Origin: Phoronis australis
Lineage: Eukaryota > Animalia > Phoronida
Length of the DNA: 64,000 nucleotides
Assembly (NCBI GenBank): GCA_002633005.1
Contig: NMRA01000232.1
Location: 1 to 64,000 of the forward strand
Direction: 5' to 3'
Shown here: positions 3,427 through 44,500 of the stretch, piece by piece
Layout of the letters: each line of letters opens with the position of its first letter
Position numbering within the stretch: position 1 is the first letter of the stretch
Translations under genes and position numbers: made by a program
The notes under the pieces: model-generated
The model's database searches: none
What the model saw: the letters and a program-made list of their open reading frames with translations, nothing else
What the model was told of the DNA's origin: nothing

Positions 3427-5014
3427 AACTTAAAAAATCTACAGTTTTAATCTCCTCTGAAAGCTCTTATCATGTGCATACGTCCTTGAGTGACCGTTGT
3501 CAAATGTATAAGAATATTTCCAAAGGCATTGTACGGTAAACCCAGTAGGGGTAATTGAGAATTCTAGCACTACATGTAATTTTGTATGTTATTTTACCTA
3601 TTTTATCTTCTGCCTATATTTTGTGTAATGAATCCACATTCCAGCTGTAAAGAGTGTGCGTAATTTTAAATTTCGGTAACGCATATTCCTTTTAAACATC
3701 GTGATAAATTAACATGTCACACTGGATGTAAGCATTGGACTGTTGACTTTGTTCTAACATGAGAACATTCAAGCGGTTTTAAATGTACATAATCTGGTTT
3801 AGGGTCGAAAACTCTTAAAATTATTTGTATTCTTTGAAGTTTTTTTGCAATTAAAATAGTTTTAAACAAACAAATAAAGCATAAAAGCGTGATTATATTA
3901 CAAATCGCCAATCCATTCTCTGTGACTATCAGTTAAGCAAAATTAGTGTTCTACACTACATTTTGATACTAAATCCTCTGTTAGTCCCTGTGCGATTTTG
4001 AATTTTATACATAACGATTTTGTATATTTTATCATGTACATTGCCAGACTGTATACCATTTTAAATAATAAAGGTTACTTTACATGGACTGATCTCGTCA
4101 TTGTCAAGGGTGACTGATTTTACAGTGCGTTATTGACATAACGGCGTATTGTCAACTTTTGATTTGATATTCTCTGAGAAGAAAAAGCAACCGTACGGTA
4201 TTCTAAACTGCAAGTAGTTCGTGACCTGAGACTGACTTAAACTCACAGAGGGGCTTGGACCCGGGCTGTAGTACATAGATGTAAAGTAACATTTAGGAAA
4301 AGGATTTCTGTGTTGGTGAAAAATGTAGAGTGGAGACAAAAAATTTTATGAATACTCAGACCACCGAATTCAGCAATGTATTTGGACACTAGTAACTGTC
4401 AGCGGGGCTGTAAACACCAAGTAAGCCTACATTTTCTTGTTGAAGAGTGGAGACCATTCGTTATGAACTGTCGTTTAAAAAGTATTCATATTATATCTCG
4501 CAACAGTTAGATTGCCAAATAATGCGTGATCAGCTTCCGCTTTCACTTAGGCAGTTCAGTGTGCTCGTAGCACGCCATATGCGCTATCCATCACTATCAG
4601 TCGCAGTGGATTTCTCGTATCTTTTCATCATGCCAACATAGTAGGCGTTGGTTCCAGATTGATGATGCCTGGAGCATCCTAACACAGATTCACTTTTGAT
4701 TTGCTGATTTGCTGCCTAAAAGCACCATTTCAGTTTTGCGTGTCGCCATACATTCAAATTCACAAGTAGATAAAGTTGTTTTTTACACTTCCCAGTTTAT
4801 CTATTAGCAGGTGTTTCGGTCGAGGAAATCTTGGAAAGTCATTGTTTTGAAAATACATTTTAATTTAAGCAAAACTATGCGACTATATGTTAAGATGACG
4901 TCATTATAACTTCAGCCTTAGATTCAATGTTTTAGACTTAAGCATACTCTGCTTCAGAAATGGTGAATATTCGTCCTATTCCATTGGCAGTCCGCAAAAT
5001 GTACAAATCTACTC

Positions 5015-5114
5015 AAAAAGGCGAGTAGTGGTTCTCCACATTGCTATAGAGAATCCAACTGCTTTCGTCTCAGTGGAAGAGTTTCTTGGTTTGCCCACTA
5101 CACCACGGCTCGCC
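5015..5114 (-). pseudogene. Array small RNA copy 1, with a 13-nt deletion in the 3' stem strand (probable pseudogene)
   Basis: Reads aaaaaggcgagtagtgg instead of aaaaagacgagtgtcggtttggagtagtgg, a deletion between two gagt direct repeats. Confidence 0.55.
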
Positions 5115-5712
5115 TAGTTATGCTGTCAAGAGAAAGTTGTATATGAAGCTTCGTCTGCTGTTGTGCAATCTAACATTGGAAGTGGTGCAACAGACTACAA
5201 CTGTGACAACTATTGGTGAAAATTAAATGAATGTAATGTGGTGCCAGTCCGGCGGAACACCTTATAACATATTAATACCGATTTAAGATCGACTGTCTCT
5301 CCAAAACCCTGCTGTCTGTATGTTTGTAAGTCTTCTGTAGGTTTCTGGAATTTCTGGAGATATAAGCCTGAGACACCGTCTAACGTCACTTTCGTTTTCT
5401 GACCTTCCTGTTAGTATTAAAAAGCACGGAGACGTTTGTGTAGGACCACCCAGTCGCATTAACGTACAGTGATTTATTTAAAACAAAATTGGAATACTAA
5501 ACATTTTAAACGTTATAAATGAACTTGCTTTGTCGCCCGGACGATTCCGCCATTCTTTCAGTTTCATTCCTTGTTGAGGTAGTGGAATTTCATTGACAAA
5601 CATCATTTAGTGAATTATGTTTTCAATAAAAATGGAAAAGTATCTGAAATACTGTTGAAAATTAACACGCACTGTGTTTACGTTTTTCATCACCAGCAAA
5701 TCTACACGTAGC

Positions 5713-5825
5713 AAAAAGACGAGTGTCGGTACGGAGTAGTGGTTCTCCACATTGCTATAGAGAATCCAACTGCTTTCGTCTCAGTGGAAGAGTTTCTTGG
5801 TTTGCCCACTACACCATGGCTCGCC
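5713..5825 (-). ncRNA. Putative Pol III small RNA (Y/sbRNA- or vault-like), copy 2
   Basis: Minus strand GGCGAG...GTAGTGGG...CCACTAC...CTCGTC-TTTTT, with A-box TGGTGTAGTGG. Confidence 0.7.
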
Positions 5826-6626
5826 TAGTTATGCTATCAAGAGAATGTTGTATATGAAGCTTCGTCTGCTGTTGTGCAATCTAACACAGGAAGTGGTGCA
5901 ACAGACTGCAACCGTGGCAGATTTTTGAAACGTTATGCCCGTCGGAACACATTAATACTGATTTAATATCGACAGTCTGTCCAAAACGGTGCAGTTAGTA
6001 CGTTTGTAAATCTTTTATGACTTTCTAGAATTTCTGTAAATATAAGCCTCTGACAGCGTACAACGGAACTTGTGTTTTTTACATTCCTGTTACCAAAAAG
6101 TAAGGAGTTGTGTTGTAGAAAGAACTAACTTTCTAGAGACCAAGCCAAAAATCAATCTTGAAGTGGCGACGAAGAGACGAAGTTGAGCTATCAACTTTGA
6201 CACCAATCGCAGCTTGACGTCACTACACCGTATTAAAACTGTTTAATCTGACTGCCCAATCTCCTCAGTCCGCGATGAGCAACTTTTCTTATGATAGATC
6301 TTGAAATAAACGATGAAAAGACATTTGTCTGCTTGTTCAGAAGCGTTTGTTATTTAAACTAACCAAAATGCATTAAATTACAATGCTGGAATTAAACAAT
6401 ATAAAATATTTAAAATTTAGTGACGTTTGACTTTGTCATTGTGTTCCAGCATTCTTTCAAATTCAATTATCTTTGAGGTAATGCGAAGTTTTCGACAACC
6501 ATCATTTAATAAATTATATTTTCAATAAAAGTTCAAAGGATTCTGAAATTCTATTTCAAAGGAACACGCACTGCGGACGAGTTTTTAAGTTTTTCATCAT
6601 ACGTTCAAAACAAGCCTACAAGTAAC

Positions 6627-6739
6627 AAAAAGACGAGTGTCGGTTTGGAGTAGTGGTTCTCCACATTGCTGTAGAGAATCCAACTGCTTTCGTCTCAGTG
6701 GAAGAGTTTCTTGGTTTGCCCACTACACCACGGCTCGCC
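6627..6739 (-). ncRNA. Putative Pol III small RNA, copy 3
   Basis: Same 113-nt cassette with intact stems and T5 terminator. Confidence 0.72.
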
Positions 6740-7357
6740 TAGTTATGCTATCGAGAGAAAGTTGTATATGAAGCTTCGTCTGCTGTTGTGCAATCTTCCA
6801 CGGGAAGTTGTGCAACAGACAGCACAATTTTGACATCTATTGGTGAAACTTACATGAATGTAATGTGATGGCAGTCCGGCGGAACACCTTATAACATATT
6901 AATACCGATTTAAGATGGACTGTCTCTCCAAAACGCTGCAGTCTGTATGTTTGTAAATCTCTTGCAGGTTTCTGGAATTTCTGGAGATATAAGCCTGAGA
7001 CACCGCCTATCTTCACTTTCGTTTTCTGACCTTACTGATACTATTAAAAAGCACGGAGATGTTTGTGTAGGATCACCCAGTCGCACTAACGTACAGTGAT
7101 TTATTTAAAACAAAATTGAAATACTAAGCATTTTAAACATTATAAATGAACTTGCTTTGTCGCCGGGACGATTCCGTCATTCTTTCAATTTCATTCCTTT
7201 TTGAGGTAGTGGGATTTCATTGATAAACATCATTTAGTGAATTATATTTTCAATAAAAATGGAAAAGTATCTGAAATAATATTGAAAATTAACACGTACT
7301 ACGGACAACGATTGTTTACGTTTTTCATCACCAAGTTCGAAGCAAGCCTGCACTAGT

Positions 7358-7470
7358 AAAAAGACGAGTGTCGGTTTGGAGTAGTGGTTCTCCACATTGC
7401 TGTAGAATTCAACTGCTTTCGTCTCAGTGGAAGTGAGTTTCTGTTTTTGCCCACTACACCACGGCTCGCC
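7358..7470 (-). ncRNA. Putative Pol III small RNA, copy 4 (small indels in the central domain)
   Basis: Same cassette; its upstream element reads TTTATATA at about -30. Confidence 0.65.
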
Positions 7471-8302
7471 TAGTTATGCTATCAAGAGAAAGTTGTATAT
7501 AAAGCTTCGTCTGCTGTTGTGCAATCTAACACAGGAAGTGGTGCAACAGACTACAACAGTGACATCTGTTGGTGAAAGGTTGTACCACTCGAAATATATT
7601 AATACCGATTTAATAACAAATGTCTGTCCAAAACGGTGCAGTTTGTACGTTTTCAAATCTTTTGTAGGTTTTTTTAATATCTGTTAATGTAAGACTCTGG
7701 TAATTATAACTGGACGTTTGTTTTCGAACTTTCGTGTTTCCAAAAAGTAAGGAATTGTGTTGGAAACATGCACGTGCGGTGTAGAAACAACTAACTTTCT
7801 AGAGACAGAGCGTAAAATAAACCTTGCATTTGTGTTGAATAGACAAAGAACCAAACGTGAGCGATCAACTTTGACCCCAGTAGCAGCCAAACGTCATCAA
7901 ACCGTTCTGTTTGATCTGATTGCCCTATCTCGTCAGTCTGCGATGAGCAACTTTTCATATGATAGATCTTGTAATAAACGATGAAAAAGACATTTGTCTG
8001 CTTGTTCAGAAGCGTTTGTTATTTAAACTAACCAAAATGCATTATATTAAAATGCTTGAATCAAAACACAATTCAAAATATTTAAAAGTTAGTGACGTTT
8101 GACTTTGTCATAGTGTGTCGGCATTCTTTCAAATTCAATTGTCTTTGAGGTAATGTAAAGTTTTCGACAACCATCATTTAATCAATTATATTTTCAATAA
8201 AAGTGAAAAGGTATTTGAAATATTATTGGAAAGGAACACGCTCTGCGGACAAACAGTTTCTAAGTCTTTCATCATTACGTTCGAAGCAAGTCTACACGTA
8301 AC

Positions 8303-8415
8303 AAAAAGACGAGTGTCGATTTGGAGTAGTGATTCTCCTCATTGCTGTAGAGAATCCAACTGCTTTTGTCTCAGTGGAAGAGTTTCTTGGTTTGCCCACT
8401 ACACCACGGCTCGCC
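8303..8415 (-). ncRNA. Putative Pol III small RNA, copy 5
   Basis: Same cassette with a few substitutions. Confidence 0.68.
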
Positions 8416-9244
8416 TAGTTATGATATCAAGAGAAAAGTGTATATGAAGCTTCGTCTGCTGTTGTGCAATCTAACACAGGAAGTGGTGCAATTGACTACA
8501 ACCGTGACGTCTAGTGGTGAAAGGTTGTACCAGTCGAAATATATTAATACGCCGATTTAACAACAAATGTCTGTCCAAAACGGTGCAGTTTGTATGTTTG
8601 CAAATCTTTTGTAGGTTTCTGGAATATCTGTTAATGTAAGACTCTGATAATGTATAAATGGACATTTGTTTTCGGACTTTCGTGTTTCCAAAAAGCCAGT
8701 AAGGAGTTGTGTTGGAAGCATGCACGTGCGTTGTAGAAACAACTAACTTTCTAGAGACAAAACGAAACATAAATCTTGAATTGGTGTTGAATAGACGAAG
8801 AACCAAACGTGAGCGATCAACTTTGACCCCAGTAGCAGCCAAACCGTTCTGTTTGATTTGATTACCCTATCTCGTCAGTCTGCGATGAGCAACTTTTCAT
8901 ATGATAGATCTTGTAATAAATGATGAAAAAGTTATTTGTCTGCTTGCTCAGAAGCGTTTGTTATTTTAACTAACCAAAACGCATTATATTAAAATGCTTG
9001 AATCAAAACACAATTTAAAATATTTAAAAGTTAGTGATGTTTGACTTTGTCATAGTGTGTCGGCATTCTTTCAAATTCAATTGTCTTTGAGATAATGTAA
9101 AGTTTTCGACAACCATACTTTAATCAATTATATTTTTAATAAAAGTGAAAAGGTACTTGAAATATTATAGGAAAGGAACACGCTCTGCGTACAAACAGTT
9201 TCTAAGTCTTTCATCATAACGTTCGAAGCAAGCGTGCACGTAGC

Positions 9245-9357
9245 AAAAAGACGAGTGTCGATACGGAGTAGTGGTTCTCCACATTACTGTAGAGAATCCA
9301 ACTGTTTTTGTCTCAGTGGAAGAGTTTCTTGGTTTGCCTACTACACCACGGCTCGTC
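9245..9357 (-). ncRNA. Putative Pol III small RNA, copy 6 (more substitutions)
   Basis: Same cassette; begins GACGAG, tetraloop is GUAA, one mismatch in the GUAGUGG helix. Confidence 0.62.
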
Positions 9358-10205
9358 TAGTTATGCTGTCAAAAGAAAGTTGTACACGAAACTTCGTCTG
9401 CTGTTATGCAATCTAACACAGGAAGTGGTGCAACAGACTACAACCGTGACATTTATTGGTGAAACGTGATACCCGTCGGAACACATTAATACCAATTCAA
9501 TATCGACTGTCTGTTCAAAACGGTGCAGTTTGTACGTTTGTAAAGCTTTTGTAATTTTCTAGAATTTCTGTAAATATAAGCCTCTGACAGCGTACAACGG
9601 GACGTCTGTTTTTGACTTTCCTGTTACCAAAAAGGAAGGAGTTGTGTTGGAAGCGTGCATTTGCGTAGTAGAAACAATTAACTTTTCTAGAGACCAAGCG
9701 AAAAATCAACCTTGAATTGGCGACAAATAGACGAAGTGCCAAAGTTGAGCGATCAACTTTGACACCAGTAGCATCAAACGCCAGCACACCGTTTCAAAAC
9801 TGTTTGAACCCAATTGCGCTACCTTATCAGTCCGCGATGAGTAACTTATCATATAGATCTTGAAATAAACGATGGAATAGACATTTGTCTACTTGTTCAG
9901 AGGTGTTTGTTATTAAAACTAACCCAAATGCATGCAAGTACAATGCTTTAATTTAAACAGAATTTAAAATATTTGATATTTATCAAAACGTTTTAGATGC
10001 AACTGACTTTGCCATTGTGTTCCGGCATTCTTTCAAATTCACTTGTCTTTGCAGTAATCCGAAGTTACTGACAACCATCCTTTAGTAAATTATATTTTCA
10101 GCAAATACGAAATGGTATCTGAAATTCTATTTGAAAGGAACACGCTCTGTGGACAACGAGTTTTTAAATTTTTCAACATACGTTCGAAGCAAGCCTGAAT
10201 GTAGC

Positions 10206-10318
10206 AAAAAGACGAGTGTCGGTTTGGAGTAGTGGTTCTCCACATTGCTGTAGAGAATCCAACTGCTTTTGTCTCAGTGGAAGAGTTTCTTGGTTTGCCC
10301 ACTACACCACGGCTCGCC
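10206..10318 (-). ncRNA. Putative Pol III small RNA, copy 7
   Basis: Consensus-like cassette; 9-bp GCAA-capped hairpin at 10236-10257. Confidence 0.72.
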
Positions 10319-10936
10319 TAGTTATGCTATCAAGAGAAAGTTGTATATGAAGCTTCGTCTGCTGTTGTGCAATCTTCCACGGGAAGTTGTGCAATAGACA
10401 GCACAACTGTGACATCTATTGGTGAAAATTACACGAAGGTAATGTGGTGGCAGTCCGGCGGAACACCTTATAACATATTAATACCGATTTAAGATGGACT
10501 GTCTCTCCAAAACGCTGCAGTCTGTATGTTTGTAAATCTCTTGTAGGTTTCTGGAATTTCTGGAGATATAAGCCTGAGACACCGCCTATCTTCACTTTCG
10601 TTTTCTGACCTTCCTGTTACTATTAAAAAGCACGGAGATATTTGTGTATGATCACCCAGTCGCACTAACGTGCAGTGATTTATTTAAAACAAAATTGAAA
10701 TACTAAATATTTTAAACATTATAAATGAACTTGCTTTGTCGCCGGGACGTTTCCTTCATTCTTTCAATTTCATTCCTTTTTGAGGTAGTGGGATGTCATT
10801 GATCAACATCATTTAGTGAATTATATTTTCAATAAAAATGGAAAAGTATCTGAAATAATATTGAAAATTAACACGCACTGCGGACAACGAGTGTTAACGT
10901 TTTTCATCATACGTTCGAAGCAAGCCTACACGTAGC

Positions 10937-11051
10937 AAAAAGACGAGTGTCGGTTTGGAGTAGTGGTTCTCCACATTGCTGTAGAGAATCCAACTGCTTT
11001 TGTCTCAGTGGAAGTGAGTTTCTTGGTTTGCCCACTACACCACGGCTCGCC
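10937..11051 (-). ncRNA. Putative Pol III small RNA, copy 8
   Basis: Same cassette with a 2-nt insertion shared with copy 4. Confidence 0.7.
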
Positions 11052-11641
11052 TAGTTATGCTATCAAGAGAAATTTGTATATGAAGCTTCGTCTGCTGTTG
11101 TGCAATCTTCCACAGGATGTGGTGCAATAGACGACAACTGTGACATCTATTGGTGAAAATTACACGAAGGTAATGTGGTGGCAGTCCGGCGGAACACCTT
11201 ATATTATATTAATACCGATTTAAGATCGACTGTCTCTCCAAAACGCTGCTGCCTGTATGTTTGTAGGTTTCTGGAATTTCTGGAGATATAAGCCTGAGAC
11301 ACCGCCTATCTTCACTTTCGTTTTCTGACCTCCCTGTTACTATTAAAAAGCACGGAGATGTTTGTGTATGATCACCCAGTCGCACTAACGTACAGTGATT
11401 TATTTAAAACAAAATTGGAATACTAAAATTTTTTAAACGTTAAAAATGAACTTGCTTTGTCGCCGTGACGATTCCGCCATTCTTTGAGGTAATGGGATTT
11501 TATTGATAAATATCATTTAGTGAATTATATTTTCAATAAAAATGGAAAAGTATATGAAATACTATTGGAAAGTAACATGCACTGCTGACAACGAGTGTTA
11601 ACGTTTTTCATCATAACGTTCGAAGCAAGTCTACACGTAGC

Positions 11642-11754
11642 AAAAAGACGAGTGTCGGTACGGAGTAGTGGTTCTCCACATTGCTGTAGAGAATCCAACT
11701 GCTTTTGTCTCAGTGGAAGAGTTTCTTGGTTTGCCCACTACACCACGGCTCGCC
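11642..11754 (-). ncRNA. Putative Pol III small RNA, copy 9
   Basis: Same cassette; continuous upstream similarity persists to about 11830. Confidence 0.7.
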
Positions 11755-12406
11755 TAGCTATGCTATGAAGGAAAGTTGTATATGAAGCTTCATCACCTGT
11801 TGTGCAATGTTTCACAGGAAGTGGTGCAACATACTTACATACTTCGATAGTTTAAAAATTCCGACATCTATTGGTGAACTATGCGACCCACTTGAAAGCA
11901 ATAAAAGACTAACGAGATCTGATATCGATTTCTTTACTGAGCGCGTACTATCAGTCTAAATCATAAAATTTCCGTACTGAATTTCTGCAAGTTAGCCTCT
12001 GAGCTGCCGGTACCCTTGAAGATATCTGGCATATCGCAGTTCAAAGGAGTGTGCCTTGGGACGTTGAGGGAGGCAGGATTTTGGAAATTCTATTTAAACT
12101 GAAGGCTATTAATACACGCACCACCTAATTGATGTTAGACATTTGTTTGAACACCAGTAACTGTCAACACCAGTGGAATATTTTCTAATTAGATTTTAAC
12201 CCTTGCAATCACTCTTTTGGTTGAACGCACCTTTCAATCTGCCTCGTGAATAAAAATCTCAACCTCTTTTATTTTTTAATTCACTATGAATTTTAATTAA
12301 TTGGTGCCATTTAGTACAACGTAAGCCTAAAATAAACTATCTATAATTTAGCCGAGATATTTCGTTCGTCGTTCAAATACAAACTCATGCATAGGCGTAT
12401 GGGGGG

Positions 12407-13192
12407 NNNNNNNNNNNNNNNNNNNNNNNNNNNNNNNNNNNNNNNNNNNNNNNNNNNNNNNNNNNNNNNNNNNNNNNNNNNNNNNNNNNNNNNNNNNNNN
12501 NNNNNNNNNNNNNNNNNNNNNNNNNNNNNNNNNNNNNNNNNNNNNNNNNNNNNNNNNNNNNNNNNNNNNNNNNNNNNNNNNNNNNNNNNNNNNNNNNNNN
12601 NNNNNNNNNNNNNNNNNNNNNNNNNNNNNNNNNNNNNNNNNNNNNNNNNNNNNNNNNNNNNNNNNNNNNNNNNNNNNNNNNNNNNNNNNNNNNNNNNNNN
12701 NNNNNNNNNNNNNNNNNNNNNNNNNNNNNNNNNNNNNNNNNNNNNNNNNNNNNNNNNNNNNNNNNNNNNNNNNNNNNNNNNNNNNNNNNNNNNNNNNNNN
12801 NNNNNNNNNNNNNNNNNNNNNNNNNNNNNNNNNNNNNNNNNNNNNNNNNNNNNNNNNNNNNNNNNNNNNNNNNNNNNNNNNNNNNNNNNNNNNNNNNNNN
12901 NNNNNNNNNNNNNNNNNNNNNNNNNNNNNNNNNNNNNNNNNNNNNNNNNNNNNNNNNNNNNNNNNNNNNNNNNNNNNNNNNNNNNNNNNNNNNNNNNNNN
13001 NNNNNNNNNNNNNNNNNNNNNNNNNNNNNNNNNNNNNNNNNNNNNNNNNNNNNNNNNNNNNNNNNNNNNNNNNNNNNNNNNNNNNNNNNNNNNNNNNNNN
13101 NNNNNNNNNNNNNNNNNNNNNNNNNNNNNNNNNNNNNNNNNNNNNNNNNNNNNNNNNNNNNNNNNNNNNNNNNNNNNNNNNNNNNNNNNNNN
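12407..13192. other. Assembly gap (N run)
   Basis: Continuous n characters. Confidence 1.
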
Positions 13193-13296
13193 CAAGTTCC
13201 TGCATTTCTACAGGGAACTTCGTTCTGCTTTAGGCTCAGACGAAGATTAGTAGCGTTTCATGAGTAAACTACTATACCACTACGCCACGGCTCACC
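13193..13296 (-). ncRNA. Divergent paralog of the array small RNA; 3' end lost in the gap
   Basis: Minus strand begins GGTGAGCCGTGGCGTAGTGG, versus GGCGAGCCGTGGTGTAGTGG in the array. It continues with three hairpins of unrelated sequence, the last capped by GAAA, and shares the upstream element TTGCACCA--TCC. Confidence 0.62.
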
Positions 13297-14340
13297 TCAG
13301 CTAATGATTAATACCTGATTTGATTACAAAGAACAATACAATACGTTTGCCGGACATGGTGCAATGTCAGGCTACCCGAACAACACGGCTCATTCACTCA
13401 TAATGACCACTCACTGAACAACGCATAGCTCATGGAGCTCAGCTGCAAATTAACACAAAAAAGCAGACGTCGTCTCATTCGTTACCGTTTACATACTGAA
13501 AAGTCGAGCCCCCATGTTAAAGTCTGGGTGCGCGCTTGCGGTCGATCCTATAAGAGTACCGGCGTGGTACGATCGAGACGTCGCATTTTCAGGTTAGTCA
13601 CAGTCGACCGTCATGACCATGTCATTGGGCAACGGCAAAGGCAAGCGGCGTCCGAGTCGGCTGGTGACGGCTATGAGCCGACCGGCCGGGTTTCCGGCCC
13701 CGCGCCCGGCTCCGCCAACACGGACACGACTACGGCCCCCCGCCGGGCGGCCCGCACGGTCCGCCACCGCCATGACTACGGCTCAGTGCAGAACTGAGAT
13801 GTCTCTGCATGTTGGACCCGGGGTCATGTGTCCAAGTCATACCTTATTTAATGTTCTGCCTGGCGTGTATGATCGGGACTGAGTTTGGTGCCCCAGCACC
13901 GGCAACTCAGTCACACTGCCGGAGCCCGCTCAGCGAGACATGCTCATCAAATGTGTGAGTGAGCTGTGCTGTTCTGGTAGCCTGGCTGCAATACCGTGCT
14001 GGTCCCGACTCAGTAGGATAGCGTTTAGTGTGGACGAAAAATTGCAAAAAACTCAAGATCATATAAGTCTTCTCGAGAGGCTGTCATGCGTTATAATGAA
14101 AGCATGTGATCTTACTAACTTTGCAATGAGTGTTTTCTGACGCGGCAAAGGCTGCCCCCAAAACGATAGGTTTCTAGAGTGAATCAGCATACTTTTTGCA
14201 AATGAATGCTCCTCGTTGCCCTGAGCACTGCGCATGGGTATCTGCTACTTCCGTTGGCTATGGAGTCGTAAATTTGTAGCGGGTGACGGTTCTTTTAACA
14301 GGTTTCCGACCTGCCTTGGTCACGAATAAGTAAATACATC

Positions 14341-14347
14341 TATATAA
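14341..14347 (+). promoter_or_regulatory. Candidate TATA box of the EF-hand gene
   Basis: TATATAA about 250 bp upstream of ATG 14595, within a CpG-richer region. Confidence 0.35.
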
Positions 14348-14594
14348 GGACGTCAGAACGCATCAAAAGGACGTTTGTTAGGTTTTTGGAGCATTTGAGG
14401 GCTATTATTATTCACACTTTGCCAGTTGTCAAGGTCAACATCGGAGTTGTTCCTGGGACGTTTTATCACCGTGAGCAAGTCAGAAGTTTGCGATGGTTGC
14501 ACAGTTGGAAAACCAAGACCGAATTTGAGTTTAGCTTTTTATTGGAGCCCCAACGATAAACATTTAGTGCCTCGAACATGACAACTCCAACGCA

Positions 14595-17500
14595 ATGTTG
14601 TCTCTGAAGATGTCTTTAAATGGGTCACCACAATCGTTCTTCCCTTCTATTGCCCCTTCTAAGGGTAGTCCAGAGCGATCAACATCGCAAAAGCGTGAAA
14701 CTGGTGTTTCGGGATCTGATGGTGCAAGTGCCGTAAGTGCTTTCTCTCCCACCAAAGATGGCCGGGCAACGGAGAAAAGTCTTCCAAAATTAGTAAATGA
14801 CCGTGCTGAAACATCTACTAGTCCCGAGGAGCGCAGCCCGAGACTCAAAGTCACCACGGTAAATTTAGAGTGTGTTTTACTGAGAAATTGGTGTATTTTG
14901 TCTGGGTGTTAAAATGAAATATTATTCAAGCTATCCTAACCATCAGGTATACCCAATTTCAAATGTCTGAAGAGTCATTTCTGCTCACTAGCTGAAGCAG
15001 AGAATCTTACTGTTGTGTAAGCTTGAGGGAGCTTTATTTAGACTTACTTCCTTCCCCACAACTTGTTAGGGCACCAGCTTAAATCTTTCATGTTGCCCAA
15101 ACTGTATATGAGATTGTATATAGCCTTGGTAGAGCTTTATACTTGTATTAAGATATACCGAGAACTCTTATATAGATCTATCCATTTTGGTAAACAGTGA
15201 GCGACATAAGGTCTAATACATGGCAAAGTTGATGCTATTAAAAACTATACCCTTCTTTGAGTATTTTAGATTTATACCTATGCTAAAAGTTGTTATTGTT
15301 CCTAGGCTAAAACAAAATTCTACATTTGTTTCTGTTCAAGTGGGATTTTTCAATTATCACTATGAAACTAGTTAGCACCTTCAGGAAATGGATTCGACTA
15401 CAAACTGATATTTTTAAAAAAGGCATATTAGCAAGATTAAATTTTTGAAGCATGTGATGTAATTAAAATGGCCCATAAACTGTAAGGGTTTGTTGAAGGT
15501 GTGAAAAATGTGGCAGGTCCGAGCCTGGGAATGAATGGTGTATTTAGTTAACTGTATGAAATTGATCCCCACACTATGACAACTGGCTGTATCAATATTT
15601 AATCACAGTTTATTGGTAAAGCCGTATCTAGCAGTTGCTAATGTGTTAATTGGTTAGCAAAGACTGCACTTTGTCTTTGTACAAAAGACTATCCATTTAT
15701 CACATTCAAGGCTCATTAGTGCTGATATATCCAAACTGGAATTAGAATTGGATTTAGTGATTAATCGATGTGGGTGTCATGTTGTTTTGGATTCTTAATA
15801 GAGAAGAATAGAAGAAAAAGAACTCTTTGCTTCGTTTTTATTACTTTGAAAATATTAAATAATAAATGAACTCTTGTGAAATTTTGTGTGTTTGAAATTT
15901 TCTATTATATGGTTGTATACAATTTTTATTATATTTTCAAAGTTGTTATTCTTTTGTTTAATAATGAAAACTGCTTTGAAATTTTGTAGTTTGATCTGCT
16001 GTGGACTAGACTGCAAAATTTTTCCACCATACCTAATAATTGTGTCTGCAGGAAAAGAAAGCCAGAAATTAATATTACATTAAATAGTAATGATTGTGAA
16101 ACTGTCCACATGTGGAGGTGTAATGTATTCAGTATTGAATATCTCTATTTCAGGTTCAACAAATCAGCAAGTCCAGTGATGATCAGATGGACCATGAGTT
16201 CTATCCGGAACCGTTGCCATATCAACCTCAATTATTCAAGTGAGTCTGCTTTCTAAACTCAGTTACCATGTAATAGTAAGCTTTCTTAAGGAAATTAAGA
16301 ATAAGTTTTTGTTGTTTGCTTTGTTGTTAATTGTAATTTATTTACTCATTCAAGTGCTTAAAAATTCTAAGGGGTCCAACACTGGACTGAAATGGGTTGC
16401 TTTAAAGGTAGATACAGGCTGTTCAGAGGCTCTTGGTATCTCCTCAGTCCTTTCTTAGTATCCAGGCCTGAACTGTGTAACTTCAAGATGAAAAATAAGA
16501 AAAAGTGTTTACAGTACATTTCAAGCTCCAGTCATTTTTGAGAATGAGCTCAAATGTCATTCTGGATGGCTTTCATTGTAAGACTTGTTCATTGAAAGGG
16601 GAGTAATAGTTTGACTAAAGTGGAACCTCTTTGTTGTCACTTACTGTGCCAACATTAATGCACATACAGGCTTTGTGTCACCTCTTTATAGGACTGTTGT
16701 TTGCGTAAGATTTCACATACCAGATGTCATTTTCTGCTCGTGATAGTGAACAATTACCTTACTTTTGTCAAGTTTCCTTCTAGACAATAGCTTGAGGTGT
16801 GAACACACGAAAACAGGTTCACGTGGTAATACTTGGAAATAGTCGCGGAATAGTGAACGGTGATATACTGTTCTGTGACTGGAATGATTTCACCACATCT
16901 TCTGGGAAACACGTTGCAGAATTCTTCATTTTCATGTTAGACCAAAATTCTGTGGATGCTAAACAGGAGTCTTGTGCACCATGCCATCAAACACTGTTAT
17001 GTCACATGGCTAGCTTTTATACAGTGTTTGGTTGTTCCTTGAGCATCAGCTCTTGTTCCCATTTTGAATATTTGGGAATGCATTAGACTTGATATGCTCT
17101 CAAAAGTGTAGTGCTTGGAATTAACCTGTAATTACCTGTCACAGACAAAGTTATTGATGATGTATTGCATCTACCATCTCCACAATCTTCCATGATCCTG
17201 GCAACTGGGCACAATATACCAAGAGTGATTTTGCCTGTGGCTGTGAGGTGTTTAGTGTTGGTCTCTCTATTGACACATCTGTATTGGTTTGTTGCAGATA
17301 TTCCAAAGGTGTCCAAGAGTGATTTTTATCTTATTTATTCAAGGTGCAAATAACCCGTCATTAATGCTCGGTCTGTCGAAATCACTTTTGATTTTGACTA
17401 TTTATCATTGTAAAATTTAAGTCTCATCTTTTTCCTTGCTTAGACAGGAAATGATTTCTAGGCTTGAGAAGAACTGATAGTTCATTAATGATCTCCCCTG

Positions 17501-29500: not shown

Positions 29501-31728
29501 ACAACTAGCCTCAATTTAGAGACCCCTGTTGTCTGCTGTTGAAACCAAATGGGAGTTTTTTATAATGAGCATGCAACACATGGCAACGCTGTCATTTGAT
29601 GTGTTTACTCAGGCTTGGATGATACCTTTTTATAATTTTCCTTGAACAGACTAGTGTGAATGGTTTGTGAAGCTTGTATTTTGTTATTTATGCATGGCTA
29701 AACTTGTACTGGAGGTGATCAATTGATTTCAGGTGTACGACATCACCAGTGCGAGCACATTCTTTGGTTTGAATGAGTTTATAACACTGTCGTGCCTTTG
29801 TCAAGAGATAACCAAACTCGGGTATGTGTGATTAGTCTCTCACTTAAGTATCACAAATGACGGAAATTTACATTCTTGTTTTGTATCGTGACTGTTGTTC
29901 CATGCATACTATGCGAGATTAGATCTCTTAATGGTTTATGGTTCAGTTTTGTTGGAATACTTGACAACGTTCCACTTAACATTGGTACCATGTTGTAAAC
30001 TTTGTATTTTTCAGTGATGTTGCGAAAGATGCATTTAACCACCTTAACTTTCAAAGTCTGCATGAGTCCATCATACAGTATGTGGTGAGTGATCTTTTGC
30101 AGTCAGGATGATCAATTGTTTGTTTCTCCCTTATGTGTTGGTTTATAATGTCTCCGTAGATGGTAGCACAAGGTTTGTGGCATTCTGTGAAGTCTGAGCA
30201 TTTTGGATTTTTCTTTTGCGCATCCGGTATTGCATTTTGAACAAAAGCGGATGTAATAAAATTTTCATTTTCTTTATTGAAAATTGAATTACACCAAAAG
30301 CACCGTGATTATAATACTAATAGTAACAGTAGTTCTGCAAGTACATAATATATATTATTTGATAATTGTGTGTTACTTTTTATTATTCTATTGCTGCCGA
30401 AGCAGTGGTTTCCTAATAGACAATTTGTTCTTTGCAGGAACTTTTTGAGTCCAAAATAAATGAAGGGAAAGGGTCGATTTCACTGGACAGTTTAGACGAC
30501 ATTTTATGCACAGGTCTAGGGAAGGACAAGACAACAGACCAGACTCTCCTGTTAGAAATCAGACGTTTAGTCAACCCGGTAAAAATGCAGTGTTTTTATG
30601 TCTGGAGTGTATTGACTTTTTACAACTCTGTGGTAATGGTCGCATATAACTTGCCTGAATTTTGTGAACCAGTTTTCTCCACTGAATAATGGGCATCAAA
30701 CTGGTTCTCAAAATACGGGCACGTTATATCTGACTATTGCCCAACTTTCTTAACCACTAGTGTTCAGTCATCTGTTTAAATACGCATAAAAAATAGACAC
30801 TAGACATCTGTGTCATGTATAACACTGGTGTTGTTCAACTTGTTTTTGACATCATACAGCACTCAAATGTGGCAAATAAATGTTCAAGTTTTATCTGATA
30901 AAGGGTGTTGAATCAACCTAAGCCCGTAGAACTAGTAAAAACTGTTGAACCTGTGGCATCCAGGCTATCTCTAATTGGCACTGAAATTGAACCTGTGGCT
31001 TCCAGGCTATATCTAATTTGCACTGAAGTTCACTTTCTCGGATCGAGGTCTGGTTGACTGTCGTTGTTCTGCTATAAAATATACTTATGCGTACTGTTAC
31101 AACCAACTTTTGTATGAACAGTCAGTTGCCACCAACTTGTTTGATGTTATTTTGAGATTTTCTTTGTTCTCTTTAAAATTTGGATATTCATAGATGAGCA
31201 TGTTACGCCACTGACTTACAAACATTTTACAAACATTTTACAAACAATTTACAAACATTTTACAAACATTTTACAAACATTTTACAAACAATTTACAAAC
31301 ATTTTACAAACATTTTACAAACATTTTACAAACATTTTACAAACATTTTACAAACATTTTACAAACAATTTACAATTTACAAACATTTTACAAACATTTT
31401 ACAAACATTTTACAAACATTTTACAAACAATTTACAAACATTTTACAAACATTTTACAAACATTTTACAAACATTTTACAAACCTATTGAGTATTTATTT
31501 TAAGTAACATTTTTGTTTTTGTATAAATAGTTACTGTAAATGTTACACGACCTGACACAAGGTAACTAAAGGTAAATAGAAACCTATGGTATTGGTGCTT
31601 TGTTCTTACATCTGTAGTGTACTGTAACTGAACTGTCATTGCTTTCATTGCAGGATATGGAGGACTCTGTCAGCAAAGTTAAGTTTCTGGCTCATATTCC
31701 ATATTTTCTGACATTTGAGGAATCATAG
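14595..31728 (+). CDS. Uncharacterised ~631-aa protein with Ser/Pro-rich disordered segments and a C-terminal EF-hand-like domain (15 exons)
   Basis: Exons 14595-14858, 16154-16239, 18039-18153, 18297-18322, 19536-19739, 20517-20612, 21916-21971, 23545-23826, 27237-27351, 27969-28083, 28855-29016, 29733-29821, 30015-30084, 30438-30578 and 31654-31728. All are GT-AG with compatible phases, giving one open frame of 1896 nt ending ...FLAHIPYFLTFEES*. EF-hand loop in LKETFHRLDNDKDGHLTFVQ. Confidence 0.85.
21240..21744. mobile_element. Non-autonomous DNA transposon (MITE) in an intron
   Basis: Perfect TIR cagggcttggaat / attccaagccctg, flanked on both sides by aatatt. The interior is CpG-rich with repeated ttccgc motifs. 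Confidence 0.85.
25312..25468. mobile_element. Short MITE
   Basis: Imperfect TIR cagtggcggatt / gatctgcccctg, with direct repeat aatct on both flanks (25307-25311 and 25469-25473). Confidence 0.7.
30947..31030. repeat. 42-bp tandem duplication
   Basis: gaacctgtggc.tccaggctat.tctaatt.gcactgaa present twice. Confidence 0.85.
31216..31483. repeat. 11-bp minisatellite (ttacaaacatt)n, ~24 copies
   Basis: Directly visible, with occasional acaaacaattt variants. Confidence 0.97.
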
Positions 31729-34059: not shown

Positions 34060-34625
34060 TCTCTCAACATTTAATAACTCAGAGAGTGCATGATAGCTAT
34101 AAACACTAAGTGTAAATCACAACAAACTCATTCAAATGAGTCACATTTTTAACATCCATAACTCAGCTAGTGCATGATGGCAGTAAATACTAAGTGCAAA
34201 TCATAACAAACTCATTCAAATGAGCCACAGACTCAATATCCATAACTCGGTGAGTGCATGATAGCTGTAAACACTAAGTGTAAATCACAACAAACTCATT
34301 CAAATGAGTCACATTTTTAACATCCATAACTCAGCTAGTGCATGATGGCGGTAAATACTAAGTGCAAATCATAACAAACTCATTCAAATGAGCCACAGAC
34401 TCAATATCCATAACTCGGTGAGTGCATGATAGCTGTAAACACTAAATGTAAATCACAGTGAACTCATCCAAATGAGCTGCAATCTCTTAACACTCCATAA
34501 CTTAGCGAGTGCATGATAGCAGGAAACACTAAGTGTAAATCACAACAAACTCATGCAAATGAACTGCAATCTCTCAACACTCCAAATCTCAGCGAGTGTA
34601 TGATAGGAACACTAAGTATAAATCT
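34060..34625. repeat. ~83-85-bp tandem repeat, ~7 copies, partly organised as a dimeric higher-order repeat
   Basis: Recurring cataactc...agtgcatgat...actaagtg.aaatca.aacaaactcattcaaatgag. Confidence 0.93.
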
Positions 34626-38594: not shown

Positions 38595-41544
38595 CTATGG
38601 TTGGTTTTCTTGAGAAGTTCCAGACTTTGATGATGGTGCTTCACTACTGCTCCCCGTAGAGGACTTTGTGACCTTTGGACCTGCCTTAGCCTCGTTCTCA
38701 CGTTGCCGCTGCTCCATCGCTTGCTTTATCCGAGCTTGAACAATCTGCAGATGCTGCTGTATGTAAGTCTCCTGGGGAGACAACTTCAAAGTTTTGATAA
38801 GGCACTTTTCTGCCCTCAAGATGTCGCCTCTCTCAACAAAGCAGACACAGAGATTGTGATTGGCCTGCACATCTAATGGTTTTGTCTCAAGAATTTTACG
38901 GAAATTCTGAAAGAGTAAAGTGTTAAGAAAAATTTTAGAAAAGCATACAGAACCTATATCATAAGTCAAATTTTGGAACTACAAATGCACACATATTAGC
39001 GACACTGTGTCTGATCTTGCCGACTATAGTTTGGTTACTGAAATTGTGGCCACTAGGTGAAGATTTGGCCACACAACACGACAGATCATCGATGGTCCCG
39101 TCTCACATGTAAGAGAGTAGAAATATCAGATCCACCTACTTGTTCAGTGATATAGTTTCTCTACTACTAGTGCCTCATTTTACGCTCTGCTGAACCAATC
39201 CTCCTCATAATGCAAGATAACAACACCCATTGATTCAGGAAAACGCATCCAGCGATGTTAAGATGACTAAAAACAGCAGACTCGTTTGTGGCTCCATAAC
39301 TGGGATAGCAATGCTGAGACATATGCATCAACAAAGGCGGTTTCATTTCACCACCACATCCAAACAGAGTGCCCTGTCCTCATGTGGCACACAATATGAG
39401 GGCTCGTGATGGTGCTTAGTATGTAACAACTCTTTTCTTCTCGCATGTAACCACTTTTAATGAATGCCCAACATGGATAACTGTATCTCTCAAGAAATTT
39501 CTCGGGTGTTTGTCTCTGACAGGTTCGTTATGCAGAGAGTGGAAATCAGGAAAATAAAATAAGATATTTATTGGCGTCAGGTACTACAGAAATTTGCAGA
39601 CCGTTTTTCCAAAATGTCACTGGATATTCGTGAAAAGAGACTTTGAATATTCCGCTTTTGACTACTCAGGTTAACTCTCAATATACCTGTTCAGCAGTGT
39701 CCACATCCTTCAGGTGATTGATGTTAATGTCCCCCATGAGAATCAGGGCTTTGTAATGGTTGGGGTCTTGCTGCAACAGAAGGATGTCAAGTTTTCTTTG
39801 ATGAGACAGTATACAGCATGACATAAAGAAGTAGAAACATTGGGAAATTGGAATTCAGGACTTTCTAATAATAATAACAAGAGTTTTGCTGCAAGGGAAG
39901 GCAAACTGTATTTAATTGGGTCATGTGACCATGCGTTTCAGTAAAATTTAGCAAATTTTAAAAAGGTTTAGTGACAACAAAACAATGATATCACTAACAA
40001 ATGAAATTTTATTTGATATGAAGGTCCAAGGTGACATCTCAAAAACAATACTACAATTTTCTAAAATAACGTTTTCTTGTTTTTGAAAGTCCATCATGAA
40101 AAAGTGGGACATTTTAAAACCAATTCTTACCAGCGATTTATAGAACAGTGCATAAGGGGTAGTAATTGAAAGTATTATATAAATCCGATGAGCTGTTTCT
40201 GAGCTATAATGTTCCAAAGTTAGCCTAATTTGGATATTTTTGAAAGAGGTGTATTTAGTCAATTATCTAAACAATTATAGATTTTAACTTGTTAAAAGTA
40301 AAGATTTTCTGATAGAAAACCTACGAAATTTGTTTTAGTTTTTACCAGCTGCGGTAACCATCAATTGGGTCATGTGACCATGTCCATTAAAAAGAAATTC
40401 CTTAAAAGTGTTTGAGAAAACAGTGTATAATCATATCATCTGAAAGTTTCATTTTAATTCGATCAGATTTTCCTGAGATATGATGTTCTGAAATTAGACA
40501 TTGGACATTTTCCTAGGTTCCTACATAACCATATTTGCCTCACTGATTTCCATTATATTCATAAAACGAGTCGAAATTTTGGGCTGTTGCAAATAATACC
40601 AACAAGAAGTATGCATCATATGATGATTTAACAAGTAGGTCAAGTTTATGTCTTACCAACGACATGTGCCCTGTTTCATGAAAAGTGACCTACAGTGTAA
40701 GGTAGAAACTACATCTTGTGCTCCCAGACGATTTCTTAAAAATAATTAAATGTCGCTTCACCAAAAATACTTAGTCTCTGAGAATTTTCCCCATGACTGC
40801 TAATTACTGGGATAATTGGTTTAAATTATTTCTAGATTGTGACATGCTAATAATAACATGGCTAAAACTTTATTCAATAATTGTGAAGACGAAGCCTAAG
40901 GACAAATGTCCGACTTGAGCCTGAAGTCACTCTCCATGAAACAGACCTCAGAACAAGAAAGTCATTCCCTAACTTATCTCTTGACAAAATAAACGAACAA
41001 TTGAACACATCAGGAGATGTCCAAGCTCCTTCAAATAAAACTCTGGTTGTTTGGTTTGCAAGGCTTTATGGATCTGTCAGGCATTGTAACTTCACATGGA
41101 CAAACACATTTAAAAGCATTTTGCCAGTAAAAGCAGCCAAAAGCCTGTGAAGGATGGTGATTGACAAGCGCTGATTTCTGCTCCAAAAATATCCAGAAGT
41201 AATAAAACTGCATTCAGTACCATACACCACTGTGTATACAATGACTGTTAGGGTTATCATCTAGCAGTTTAAAAGAATAGGTTGCAACCTGTAAATTCAA
41301 GGTTTTAACAAAATCTGACACTTGACTGCCATAAAAAAACTTAAAATTGTGGCAAATGGTCAGTCCAATGCTAAAAAATTCTGAGTTAAGAGTTGTTTCA
41401 CCTCCTCCCCCAAACCCAACTTTTACTCCTCATACTTACAGACAAAAGCTTCTGTAAATAAGGTACAGCGTCTAGGGGCCTATTGACGTCATTCACCAAC
41501 ATGAGCGCAAGGTTGAACAGAGCACTACGGAACTTTTCATCCAG
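38595..41544 (-). CDS. TMTC3: Protein O-mannosyltransferase TMTC3, last three coding exons (TPR region)
   Basis: Minus-strand exons 41544-41440 (LDEKFRSALFNLALMLVNDVNRPLDAVPYLQKLLS), 39770-39687 (QDPNHYKALILMGDININHLKDVDTAEQ) and 38906-38595 (NFRKILETKPLDVQANHNLCVCFVERGDILRAEKCL...YIQQHLQIV...*). All are phase 0 with AG/GT ends. The FRSALFNLAL, HNLCV and YIQxHLxIV motifs match the TMTC3 C-terminus as I recall it. Confidence 0.92.
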
Positions 41545-44500
41545 CTGAAATTCAAAATGAATAATTCCTGAACATTCTGGACATATTCAAATAAAACCAA
41601 CTAACCAAGATAAAAAAACACCAAACTATTTTACATTCTTTCAATCTTGGCTCAATACACTTTCCAATTGAAATTTAATTGCTTAGATGTTAGGTTGATT
41701 GACAATAAAAGGGAGAGCTTAGTTTTATCGCTTTTCAAATGTAAGAAAAAAAATTGATTGTAAATATAACCTCACTCGACTTTTAAGATAACTTCTCTGA
41801 TTGTAACATCACATTGCGATAACTTTGATGTCAAGTAGATAATCGTGTAAAATTTTATAGCTGCAGACCATTACTAACACAGCTAATGGGTGGATTTCAC
41901 TTGATGGAAAGAGCTTGGGGGGAGGGGAGGCAGGGAGGCTGGGAAGAGGGGGAGGCAGGGATGGGGAGAGGGGCTACTCAGCTACAGGTATACGAACTAT
42001 GCAGGAACTAAGAATTTGGTTAAATACAAATATTTGCATCCGAAACTTGTTTAAACTGATCAACCAATCCGGTTTCTAAGTGCAGATCAAACAACTGGTC
42101 AATTTGACTAGACAGTGAGAGAAGCCAATGACTACAAGTGAACCATGAAAATGAGTTCAAAGTAAAAAACATGATCACAGTCTAGTGAAGGGTGTTTACA
42201 GTCCTTAGGTTTTTCTCAGTCTTTTTGCCATCTGTTCTGTTCAGTCACCCCTAGGTTTAAAATTCTTGGAAGATTATTAATTATGACAAATGGTATTGTA
42301 GTGAAAACCTTTTTCACTCGTTATATTTTCATTTTCCAAGAGTTTTCCAGAACACAACTTTAACATTTCATGCGTATTTTTTCAAAAAAGTGGACTTATA
42401 GCCACTTGCTAAAATGCAAATGATGATAAAAAGGTCTCATCTCCTTGTGCAGTGCATGTGTATCCTTTTAAGTTAAAGCCGTCTGGCTTACAGCAGTTCT
42501 GAAGTTACTCAAACCCTCAGAAAGTATCAGCAAAAGTGGCACCTGTAAATGTTCACATGACAGTTTTGCTACTAGCAAAAATGAAAACGCTAACATTTTA
42601 GCCAGTTTGTGAACAGGATATTATGGGTTGGATGATTGATACCACACAAAACTGGAACTGATGTATGAGCTCGCAACAGGAAAGCCAACCCAAGATTTCA
42701 TTTATAATATCTAGTTTGTTTTTTACAGGTTTTCCATTTCCACCATTTTTATCTCCCATCAGTTTTGCATGCATAAAAACCATTCGTCATTTCCAAGGTT
42801 TTCTGTGACAATCACTTCCGATACAATAACCATGAAGAACTAATGTACAACAGGGTCCTAAACGAAAATACATCAAGGCTAGACAGTGATTACAAGTCAA
42901 CTGTGAAAATGACTTCAAAGTAAAAAAACGTAATGACTGAATCGTTTGTAGTCATGATGACGTTTTTGTGGAATTTTTTTGAATCCATGTTAAATATAGC
43001 GGCTAAATAAATTCATAGTTTTCTTTGTTTTGATTCCACTTTTGCCTTTAGGATTGTTATTTTGATAAAAAATACCAAATACTGAACAAACAGGTTGCAA
43101 AACACTGAACTTATTTACACACTATACACGTTCATCCACTTATGAATCAGTCACCCTTAACAATTTTCTTGAAGGTTACTTAAAAACCACTTTCATCCTA
43201 TCTACATTTTGGTTAAACAGTTGACAAATGGCAAGCATACATTTGACTACAGGCTGACATGAAATTTACTCAAATTACAAAACACAATTTCTCAAAGCTA
43301 AGGAACATACATTCCTTGCATTCTTATTTAAACAAAAAAGCCAACATTAATGTCACAATTGCCTAAGTTATAACATCCACAACCCACAACAGACTGGGGT
43401 GGTTTGAGGCTTGTTTAACTTTATGTGGTTAGGAAATTTCCTACATTGTGTTGAATTCAGTAAACATTCAGTCTTTTACGTAACTGATGTAAGATACTGC
43501 GCAAAAGGAGACAATAGTTTCCTCTGCAGCCAATATTCAGACATGTATATGCAAAAAGATGATAAAATTTTCTTACATACATGAATAACTCAATTTCATT
43601 ATTGATCACTGCTTAGGCAAATAATTATGTACAATTCTTCACTTATTTATATCACCAGCGAGTGAAATTTTATTTTGTTAAATGTTTCCACAAAGGAAAA
43701 TCTTAAGAACACCTTAGTTTGTGACAAGGATGGATTGTAGTAAAAAGATGTCACAAAACAACATTTGCTGAAATTGCAAATTAATTGCACAAAAGGTAAC
43801 CAGCCTGCGAAAAATGACATTTTTGTGTGAAATCAGTGAAAAATCACTGTAAATAAGAATTTCCATTTTCCTAGTTGGCTAGTGCATACAAACAATTCAT
43901 CTTCACTCTTGTTATTGCAAAGGAGACAAAAAGGCAATATTGTTCGGAGAAAACTCACAATGCATTTTAAGTCCGTTGAAAATTGAAAATTTCTCTCCAT
44001 TTCTCAGACCTCTAGATTATAACCTGTCACTATACAAATGTCCAAATTTGGTAAATATCAGATTGCTGTATCTTGGAAATAGCTGATCACAAGTTTCAGG
44101 TACTATGCTTTGTGCTGCTTTTCAAAATATTTCTAAAAATTGTAGAGTTTATTGATAGCTTTGATTTGCTAAACAAGTTCTTTTTTTGCTAAATGCTACC
44201 CAATCAATGACAGATTGGTAAAAAGTCAAAATTAAATCAAATTATAAAACTTTCCAATTTCAGAAAAGATTATACTTTTACAGCCTTAATATCTATAGTT
44301 TTGACGATATATTTGGCTAAATGCATAGGTTTGTCGACAAAGTCTAACATGACCCCAAAAGAGACAAATTGAATTCATTTTATTTATTTTATTAGAAACT
44401 GTAGATCTATTATTGTATGCTGTATTCGTTGTAAAAATTTTTAAACATTCGATTTAATGTCTTGTAACCCGACCAATAAGGCCCACCCAATCTAGAGATA

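Follow-up and report, generated by a model that had tools for sequence, protein, structure and literature searches.

Nine tandem units of 703–961 bp each lie between 4.9 and 11.9 kb of the window (the whole 64,000-nt stretch of DNA analysed here), each with a putative RNA segment on the minus strand that starts at position 5114, 5825, 6739, 7470, 8415, 9357, 10318, 11051 or 11754 (copies 1 to 9). The segment is 108 nt long per unit, with copy 1 at 95 nt and copy 8 at 110 nt, and its sole T5 run sits at its 3' end in 9/9 copies. Copy 7 (10206..10318, minus strand), a predicted 108-nt RNA followed by T5, serves as our reference; its start is placed from the terminal stem of the predicted fold, and RNA numbering follows it throughout. 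Also on the minus strand are copy 2 (5713..5825), copy 3 (6627..6739), which is of the intact type, copy 5 (8303..8415), in which a single pair of hairpin P5 is broken, and copy 8 (10937..11051), whose 2-nt insertion falls in an unpaired linker. At the array edges, copy 1 (5015..5114, minus) carries a 13-nt deletion in its 3' stem that shortens the panhandle, and the upstream homology of copy 9 (11642..11754, minus) stops ~110 nt before its start. Two further minus-strand copies are likely decaying: copy 4 (7358..7470), with damaged hairpins P4 and P5, and copy 6 (9245..9357), with an altered A box and TATA-like element. A tenth, diverged paralog occupies 13193..13296 (minus). Its 3' end is cut by a 786-N assembly gap (12407–13192) that separates it from copy 9, conceals that end and may contain further copies; no RNA-seq read bridges the gap. 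A covariance-model search, with the paralog included in the training set, returned no copy beyond the ten and a single chance match (E 3.4).

The window as a whole has the character of animal DNA, its exons being short. At ~1.8–2.8 kb it contains the 3' end of an SLC6 transporter, scoring below Pfam's cut-off. A TMTC3-like O-mannosyltransferase gene contributes three 3' exons to the minus strand of 38600–41550 (exons at 38.7–41.5 kb); its only named relatives, among three matches from 12 candidates, are snail and tube-worm proteins at 61–62%, a weak pointer to a lophotrochozoan. An expressed, spliced plus-strand gene (14270–14910 and ~16130–16160) stands head to head with the paralog at a distance of ~1 kb, with reads leaving its exon at 14860 for sequence near 16.15 kb. 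We found no family for the open reading frames of this gene or for one at 19.5–19.8 kb, and no relative for an exon at about 19.6 kb. The interval from the paralog to the gene beyond it includes a GC-rich 0.5-kb block, 13430–14000, with an ORF-like stretch, mostly without reads and possibly a mobile-element remnant. At 13330–13400, a few RNA reads on both strands fit for ~35–70 nt and then continue into other sequence, with two common differences, and this stretch is probably a short element that has other copies in the genome. Minisatellites occur at 31150–31550 (11-bp units), 34070–34580 (84-bp units) and 49380–49520 (units of about 5 and 10 bp).

Conservation within the array is sharply bounded, running from -76 through the T run. 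Leaving out edge copies 1 and 9, mean identity among copies 2–8 reaches 0.95 within the RNA, 0.92 over the upstream 76 nt and 0.79–0.80 in the spacers, with variable columns at 16/108, 17/76 and 161/385, respectively. Gene conversion could have contributed to this likeness. The units fall into two upstream types, one with a 29-nt insertion (copies 1, 3, 7 and 8) and one lacking it (copies 2, 4, 5 and 6), and variants of the RNA cross this division, which points to recombination or gene conversion; copies 1, 4 and 6 appear to be decaying after unequal crossing-over. Such mosaicism, indicating active recombination, would also fit a neutral satellite-like repeat or a mobile element (a SINE, or something retrozyme-like) in which a GC-richer core has been homogenised and the hairpins are by-products, a reading that the substitution data below bear upon.

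The minus strand of each copy is predicted to fold at z scores of -2.1 to -3.7 (9/9 copies) against -0.3 to -1.8 for the plus strand, as measured with dinucleotide shuffles, and the modelled minus-strand fold thus exceeds chance. From its ends inward, the prediction for copy 7 comprises a 6-bp terminal stem (10318–10313 with 10216–10211, p at least 0.98), an unpaired C7 (p=0.98) facing three unpaired bases, 2 bp, another 3-nt bulge, 3 bp, a U-U mismatch and a 7-bp upper stem (10305–10299 with 10235–10229). The upper stem pairs G17-U18-G19 with C85-A86-C87, making a GUG-CAC helix between the G-C ends G14-C90 and G20-C84. It encloses a loop domain of an unpaired linker and two hairpins, both on the minus strand. 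P4 (10258..10281) has 7 bp, a 1-nt bulge and a 9-nt loop, whose AG...AAAG pattern is common to copy 7 and the paralog. P5 (10236..10257) has nine pairs, including one U-G, beneath a GNRA loop, GCAA; it is the 9-bp hairpin that a first-pass annotation of this DNA had proposed on the minus strand, and it is indeed present.

Several elements suggest how such an RNA would be transcribed. An 11-nt match to the Pol III A-box consensus, at +10 to +20 (10299..10309 in copy 7, minus), is found in 8/9 copies and in the paralog, where U13C keeps the match. An exact B box is lacking within 260 nt of any start, the 3' end of the paralog being hidden; a B-box-like 9-mer with one mismatch stands at +56 in 9/9 copies and is not kept in the paralog. 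Upstream of copy 7, the conserved stretch 10342..10394 (minus, 0.92 identity) is a candidate external promoter, with a 13-nt box at -76 and a second, TTGCA box at -54, and a TATA-like ATATA lies at -30 in 8/9 copies (-29 in copy 9). Taken together, the A box, the TATA-like element and the T5 end suggest Pol III transcription with mainly external elements. Behind the terminator, at about +125 to +150 on the minus strand of copies 3–9, most units carry a TTCGAAC palindrome resembling a B-box core and then a C-box-like ATGATGA; this motif is conserved no more than its surroundings and is deleted in copy 2. A bacterial promoter scan, irrelevant here, returned no matches.

RNA-seq did not reveal the predicted RNA. 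Among ~35 million RNA-seq records from long-fragment libraries, which are expected to lose 110-nt RNAs, four reads fell on copy 7's unit; they came from three raw runs (0 in the contig run), all ran past the predicted start and, by the strand convention of the neighbouring gene, they comprise one sense pair and two antisense reads. The paralog drew 0 reads in the same long-fragment libraries, in which the adjoining gene had a depth of 2–9.

A tRNA gene or tRNA-derived SINE was rejected as an identity, with 0 genes called by ARAGORN, no exact B box and no A-rich tail, as was a hammerhead satellite or retrozyme, for which the core pattern gave 0 matches on either strand of 4901–13400 and Rfam gave no ribozyme match. 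A spliced-leader or Sm RNA was set aside on the RNA's lack of an Sm-site pattern.

We then compared substitutions among the nine copies with the predicted pairs. The changes listed in the first-pass annotation all occur in the sequence: C69U in copies 1–2 turns C-G into U-G; C72U in copy 6 turns the loop from GCAA to GUAA, still GNRA as claimed, though any base at N keeps GNRA; G2A (copy 6) and U107C (copy 1) each convert the terminal G2-U107 to a Watson-Crick pair; and C84U in copy 5 turns G20-C84 into G-U. The CUCGCC end of copy 1 is accompanied by the 13-nt deletion, through which the lower stem loses its 3' side. We add A94G in copies 2, 6 and 9 (U-A to U-G), absent from that earlier list. 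The disruptive changes it had reported in copies 4, 5 and 6 are likewise real (G60A with a 2-nt deletion, U77A and G19A, respectively), and G9A in copy 2 is a further one, which copy 2's own fold would rescue with an A9-U95 pair (p=0.77). Two deletions (copies 1 and 4) damage stems.

From these changes the annotation had argued that substitutions tend to preserve structure, a claim that the counts do not support. Five of the nine distinct substitutions at paired positions keep pairing (six with G9A); transitions account for 8/9 of them and 53% of possible stem transitions are compatible, giving P(at least 5 of 8)=0.43, or 0.19 counting G9A. Under an assumed spacer transition share of 0.49 (83/168), the corresponding values are 0.058 and 0.013, and the excess of transitions in stems (P=0.018) is a hint at most. 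Paired sites are substituted at 9/68 and unpaired sites at 8/40 (P=0.42), and none of the 34 consensus pairs has changed on both sides. Compatible changes among the nine copies are not above chance, and this, with paired sites varying no less than unpaired ones, is what a neutral repeat would also give. Nor do the wobbles orient the RNA to the minus strand, as had been proposed, because five of the nine stem changes are compatible on either strand: by strand, the wobble-making changes number three on the minus strand only and three on the plus strand only, two changes are compatible on both and one on neither. The minus orientation rests instead on the fold energies, the A box, the upstream elements, the T5 run and the GNRA loops.

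The diverged paralog provides the evidence that the array does not. An nhmmer profile built solely from the nine copies found it (E 8.6e-6; next match E 0.11), and it keeps 18 of the first 20 nt, its 5' 20-mer having two changes, C3U and U13C. On the minus strand it is predicted to form an extra hairpin (13274–13248), P4 (13243–13220) and a GAAA-capped P5 (13217–13196), and the visible part of its loop domain has a fold z score of -2.9, against -1.0 on the plus strand. An upstream box at -68 (13352..13364, minus) is identical at 11/13 positions to the -76 box of copy 2; the 8-mer common to the paralog and array boxes has six occurrences in 110,800 bases outside the array, and beyond this promoter box the 900 nt upstream of the paralog have nothing in common with the array.

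With each hairpin anchored on its loop, we compared the paralog with copy 7. In P4, two pairs have undergone double transversions (C-G to G-C and A-U to U-A), and in P5 two pairs have changed on both sides (U-A to C-G and A-U to G-C), alongside one-sided changes of U-G to U-A and of C-G to U-G, the second of which copies 1–2 also show, and a loop change from GCAA to GAAA. In all, 16 pairs in ungapped register give four double changes, two single compatible changes and two broken pairs; both broken pairs lie at the base of P5, where, by eye, a 1-nt bulge restores two U-A pairs. When 12 substitutions were placed randomly on 32 paired positions, outcomes with at most two broken and at least four double pairs arose with P of 0.0008, 0.003 and 0.017 at transition shares of 0.5, 0.7 and 0.9 (observed transitions, 7/12). 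The tool's own shuffles gave 6/500 for P5 with inner P4 and 33/500 for P4, values that the tool warns are not probabilities. The covariation comes from one paralog and thus one evolutionary comparison, and holds no double change in the panhandle, the paralog's 3' stem lying in the gap. The paralog retains P4 and P5 through compensatory changes.

These data weigh on the neutral-repeat explanation. A paralog that keeps only the promoter box, the 5' end and the hairpins, together with four double compensatory pairs, is difficult to reconcile with by-product hairpins, and a mobile element would in addition have to dispense with an A-rich tail behind the T run, a hammerhead core and any Rfam ribozyme match; we regard it as very unlikely. 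Selected, structured Pol III RNA genes are, by our estimate, very probably what the locus holds. The earlier annotation had concluded that the minus strand encodes a structured, constrained RNA, some copies being intact and others decaying. That conclusion likely holds, for reasons other than those it gave, and is supported because of the paralog's compensatory pairs. Of the two observations that it had named as counting against it, compatible changes at no more than the rate expected from transition bias were indeed found among the nine copies, and a lack of covariation was not, given the four double pairs of the paralog.

We next considered which family such an RNA could belong to. Rfam returned 0 matches at gathering score across the 64 kb and only chance-level matches below it (five on the array at E 0.89–8.9, three on copy 7 and two on the paralog), and its Y_RNA and nematode sbRNA models gave none at E of 10 or less, whether on copy 7, on the array or on the paralog. 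A metagenome scan with paired 5' and 3' motifs gave seven matches, with no homologue on inspection: by eye, three are prokaryotic tRNA genes and four lack the layout. According to published descriptions, the two ends of Y and stem-bulge RNAs (sbRNAs) pair and leave a U tail, a bulged C and a 3-nt bulge interrupt the lower stem, the upper stem carries GUG-CAC and the loop a UUAUC motif (PMC4726728, PMC4450293, PMC4030889); human Y genes have type 3 (external) promoters (PMC10498592), nematode sbRNAs occur as tandem arrays, and the letters of the Ro60 helix, GUCCG...UGAC, stand in nearly all the sbRNA alignment rows that were inspected (both PMC5745555).

The RNA described here, at 108 nt plus T5 with predicted ends, has the size and termini of this group (100±20 nt, paired, U tail), and its upper stem carries (A/G)UG-CA(C/U) with G-C clamps, at 7 bp rather than 9. 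Its lower stem resembles the Y-type arrangement in part: C7 is unpaired yet faces three unpaired bases, and a second 3-nt bulge lies above. The GUG-CAC pairing is not independent evidence, because it is automatic once the A box is paired. A strict descriptor of the Ro60 helix (GUCCG...UGAC) was found in 0/9 copies, and UUAYC after the upper stem is absent from all nine copies and the paralog. A relaxed Y/sbRNA descriptor, written after seeing the sequence, matches 6/9 copies and occurs once in 111,100 other bases, and is matched by 0.1–0.2% of sequences in which the lower stem was shuffled with the A box and its pairing partner held fixed. On sequence grounds, we would not file the RNA as a member of the Y/sbRNA family, since it resembles the layout and fails the Ro60 helix and UUAUC. 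Whether it has a Y-like role is a close call that, in our judgement, falls a little short of even.

Derived vault RNAs, Pol III panhandles whose 5'-proximal A box pairs with the 3' end, whose central domain varies and whose paralogs are clustered, bound by TEP1 in vault particles, offer another account. A panhandle and boxes A and B define vault RNAs (PMC7058938, PMC7904556), and the genes described here agree with vault RNAs in size, in the panhandle and A box, in their upstream elements and in being clustered (PMC7058938, PMC8824774): the internal A box is present in 8/9 copies and the paralog, and the panhandle fold falls within 80–150 nt. Flatworm candidates may carry a B box reduced to GTTC or a one-letter variant (PMC8824774). 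The exact B box is nonetheless missing in the nine copies and in the visible paralog. Lophotrochozoan vault RNAs were found via a conserved flank following box A, which reads TTACTTCG in Lottia and in Helobdella (PMC8824774); here only 2/8 and 3/8 of its letters match. Reports of vault RNAs include one mollusc and one annelid (PMC8824774, PMC2770079), as well as flatworms (PMC8824774), and the Rfam vault model does not match, although it contains Lottia and Helobdella sequences (PMC8824774). We consider a derived vault RNA improbable.

The failure of the strict tests for both families leads to a third account, a Pol III RNA particular to this lineage, with no relation to Y or vault RNAs, whose function would lie in hairpins P4 and P5, the best-supported parts, for which we found no counterpart described among Y or vault RNAs. 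It may possibly have arisen from a tRNA-type head, as in mammalian snaR, BC200 and 4.5S RNAs, an origin suggested by a tRNA-like 5' part (3/7 metagenome matches to the 5' motif being, by eye, prokaryotic tRNA genes) and by the B-box-like 9-mer. ARAGORN finds no tRNA, however, and that 9-mer is absent from the paralog; moreover, the placement of CCG...GAC around the bulges fits the Y/sbRNA layout more often than shuffles do. We judge this account somewhat unlikely.

Our preferred reading, which we hold tentatively, is an RNA that works as a scaffold in the manner of Y and stem-bulge RNAs. The tandem cluster would hold a single gene, in nine young copies and an older paralog, that Pol III would read into a panhandle RNA of ~110 bases, with transcription probably directed by the upstream boxes, the TATA-like element and the A box, without a B box. 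The nascent RNA would be bound by La at its U tail. Ro60 and TEP1 are the two TROVE proteins, binding Y and vault RNAs (PMC7916137), and we therefore chose a TROVE-domain protein, Ro60 or else TEP1, as the putative partner of the bulged lower stem. Binding there would leave other partners access to the upper stem and to both conserved hairpins, and the hairpin loops (GNRA and AG...AAAG) may act as docking or packing sites. In a more far-reaching version, which we think less likely than not, the cluster would represent a third Y/stem-bulge branch and supply the Y-type RNAs that an animal of mollusc or annelid type has seemed to lack; the Ro60 site would have been rewired, the A box would resemble that of vault RNAs, and two conserved hairpins would make up the loop domain.

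Ro60 homologues occur in most animals, and Y-type RNAs had been reported, as of 2015, only for vertebrates, nematodes, two insects and a lancelet (both PMC4726728); Y RNAs are listed as missing in schistosomes (PMC2770079). We found no report of mollusc or annelid Y-type RNAs in literature that did not include the main evolutionary surveys, a coverage that does not establish their absence from print, and closer relatives may stand in the published Y/sbRNA alignments or in Figure 8 of PMC8824774. If the third-branch reading is true, the family would link the RNA partners of both TROVE proteins and provide a seed for finding Ro60's RNA partner across Lophotrochozoa. A cluster with two diverged paralog types is in any case a structure-supported seed for the family in other invertebrates, and it makes the replication function of GUG-CAC and Ro60 binding testable in a third animal branch. 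Even if it is not Y-related, this would be an uncatalogued, selected Pol III RNA, and likely a real family of Pol III small RNAs absent from the Rfam catalogue.

Comparison with known systems places these genes as follows. Like snaR and BC200, they are multi-copy, recently expanded structured Pol III RNAs with diverged subsets; unlike these Alu/7SL-derived RNAs, which keep A and B boxes, they show no such ancestry (PMC10498592). They share with vault RNAs (RF00006) an 80–150-nt Pol III panhandle, a 5' A box, upstream elements and clustered paralogs, and differ in having no B box, no post-box-A flank and no Rfam match. They depart from Y RNAs and sbRNAs in carrying GCCG/CCGAC with non-pairing flanks in place of the GUCCG/UUGAC Ro60 helix, an unpaired C that lies within a 1x3 internal loop instead of forming a clean bulge, an extra base between CCG and the upper-stem motif, a 7-bp upper stem, no UUAUC, a loop domain of two covarying hairpins and no Rfam match. 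Like Y RNAs and sbRNAs, they would nonetheless yield an RNA of ~110 nt with paired ends and a U tail, a lower stem interrupted, in a partly different arrangement, by an unpaired C and 3-nt bulges, a GUG-CAC upper stem with G-C ends and a variable loop domain, from tandem paralogs with an external-type promoter.
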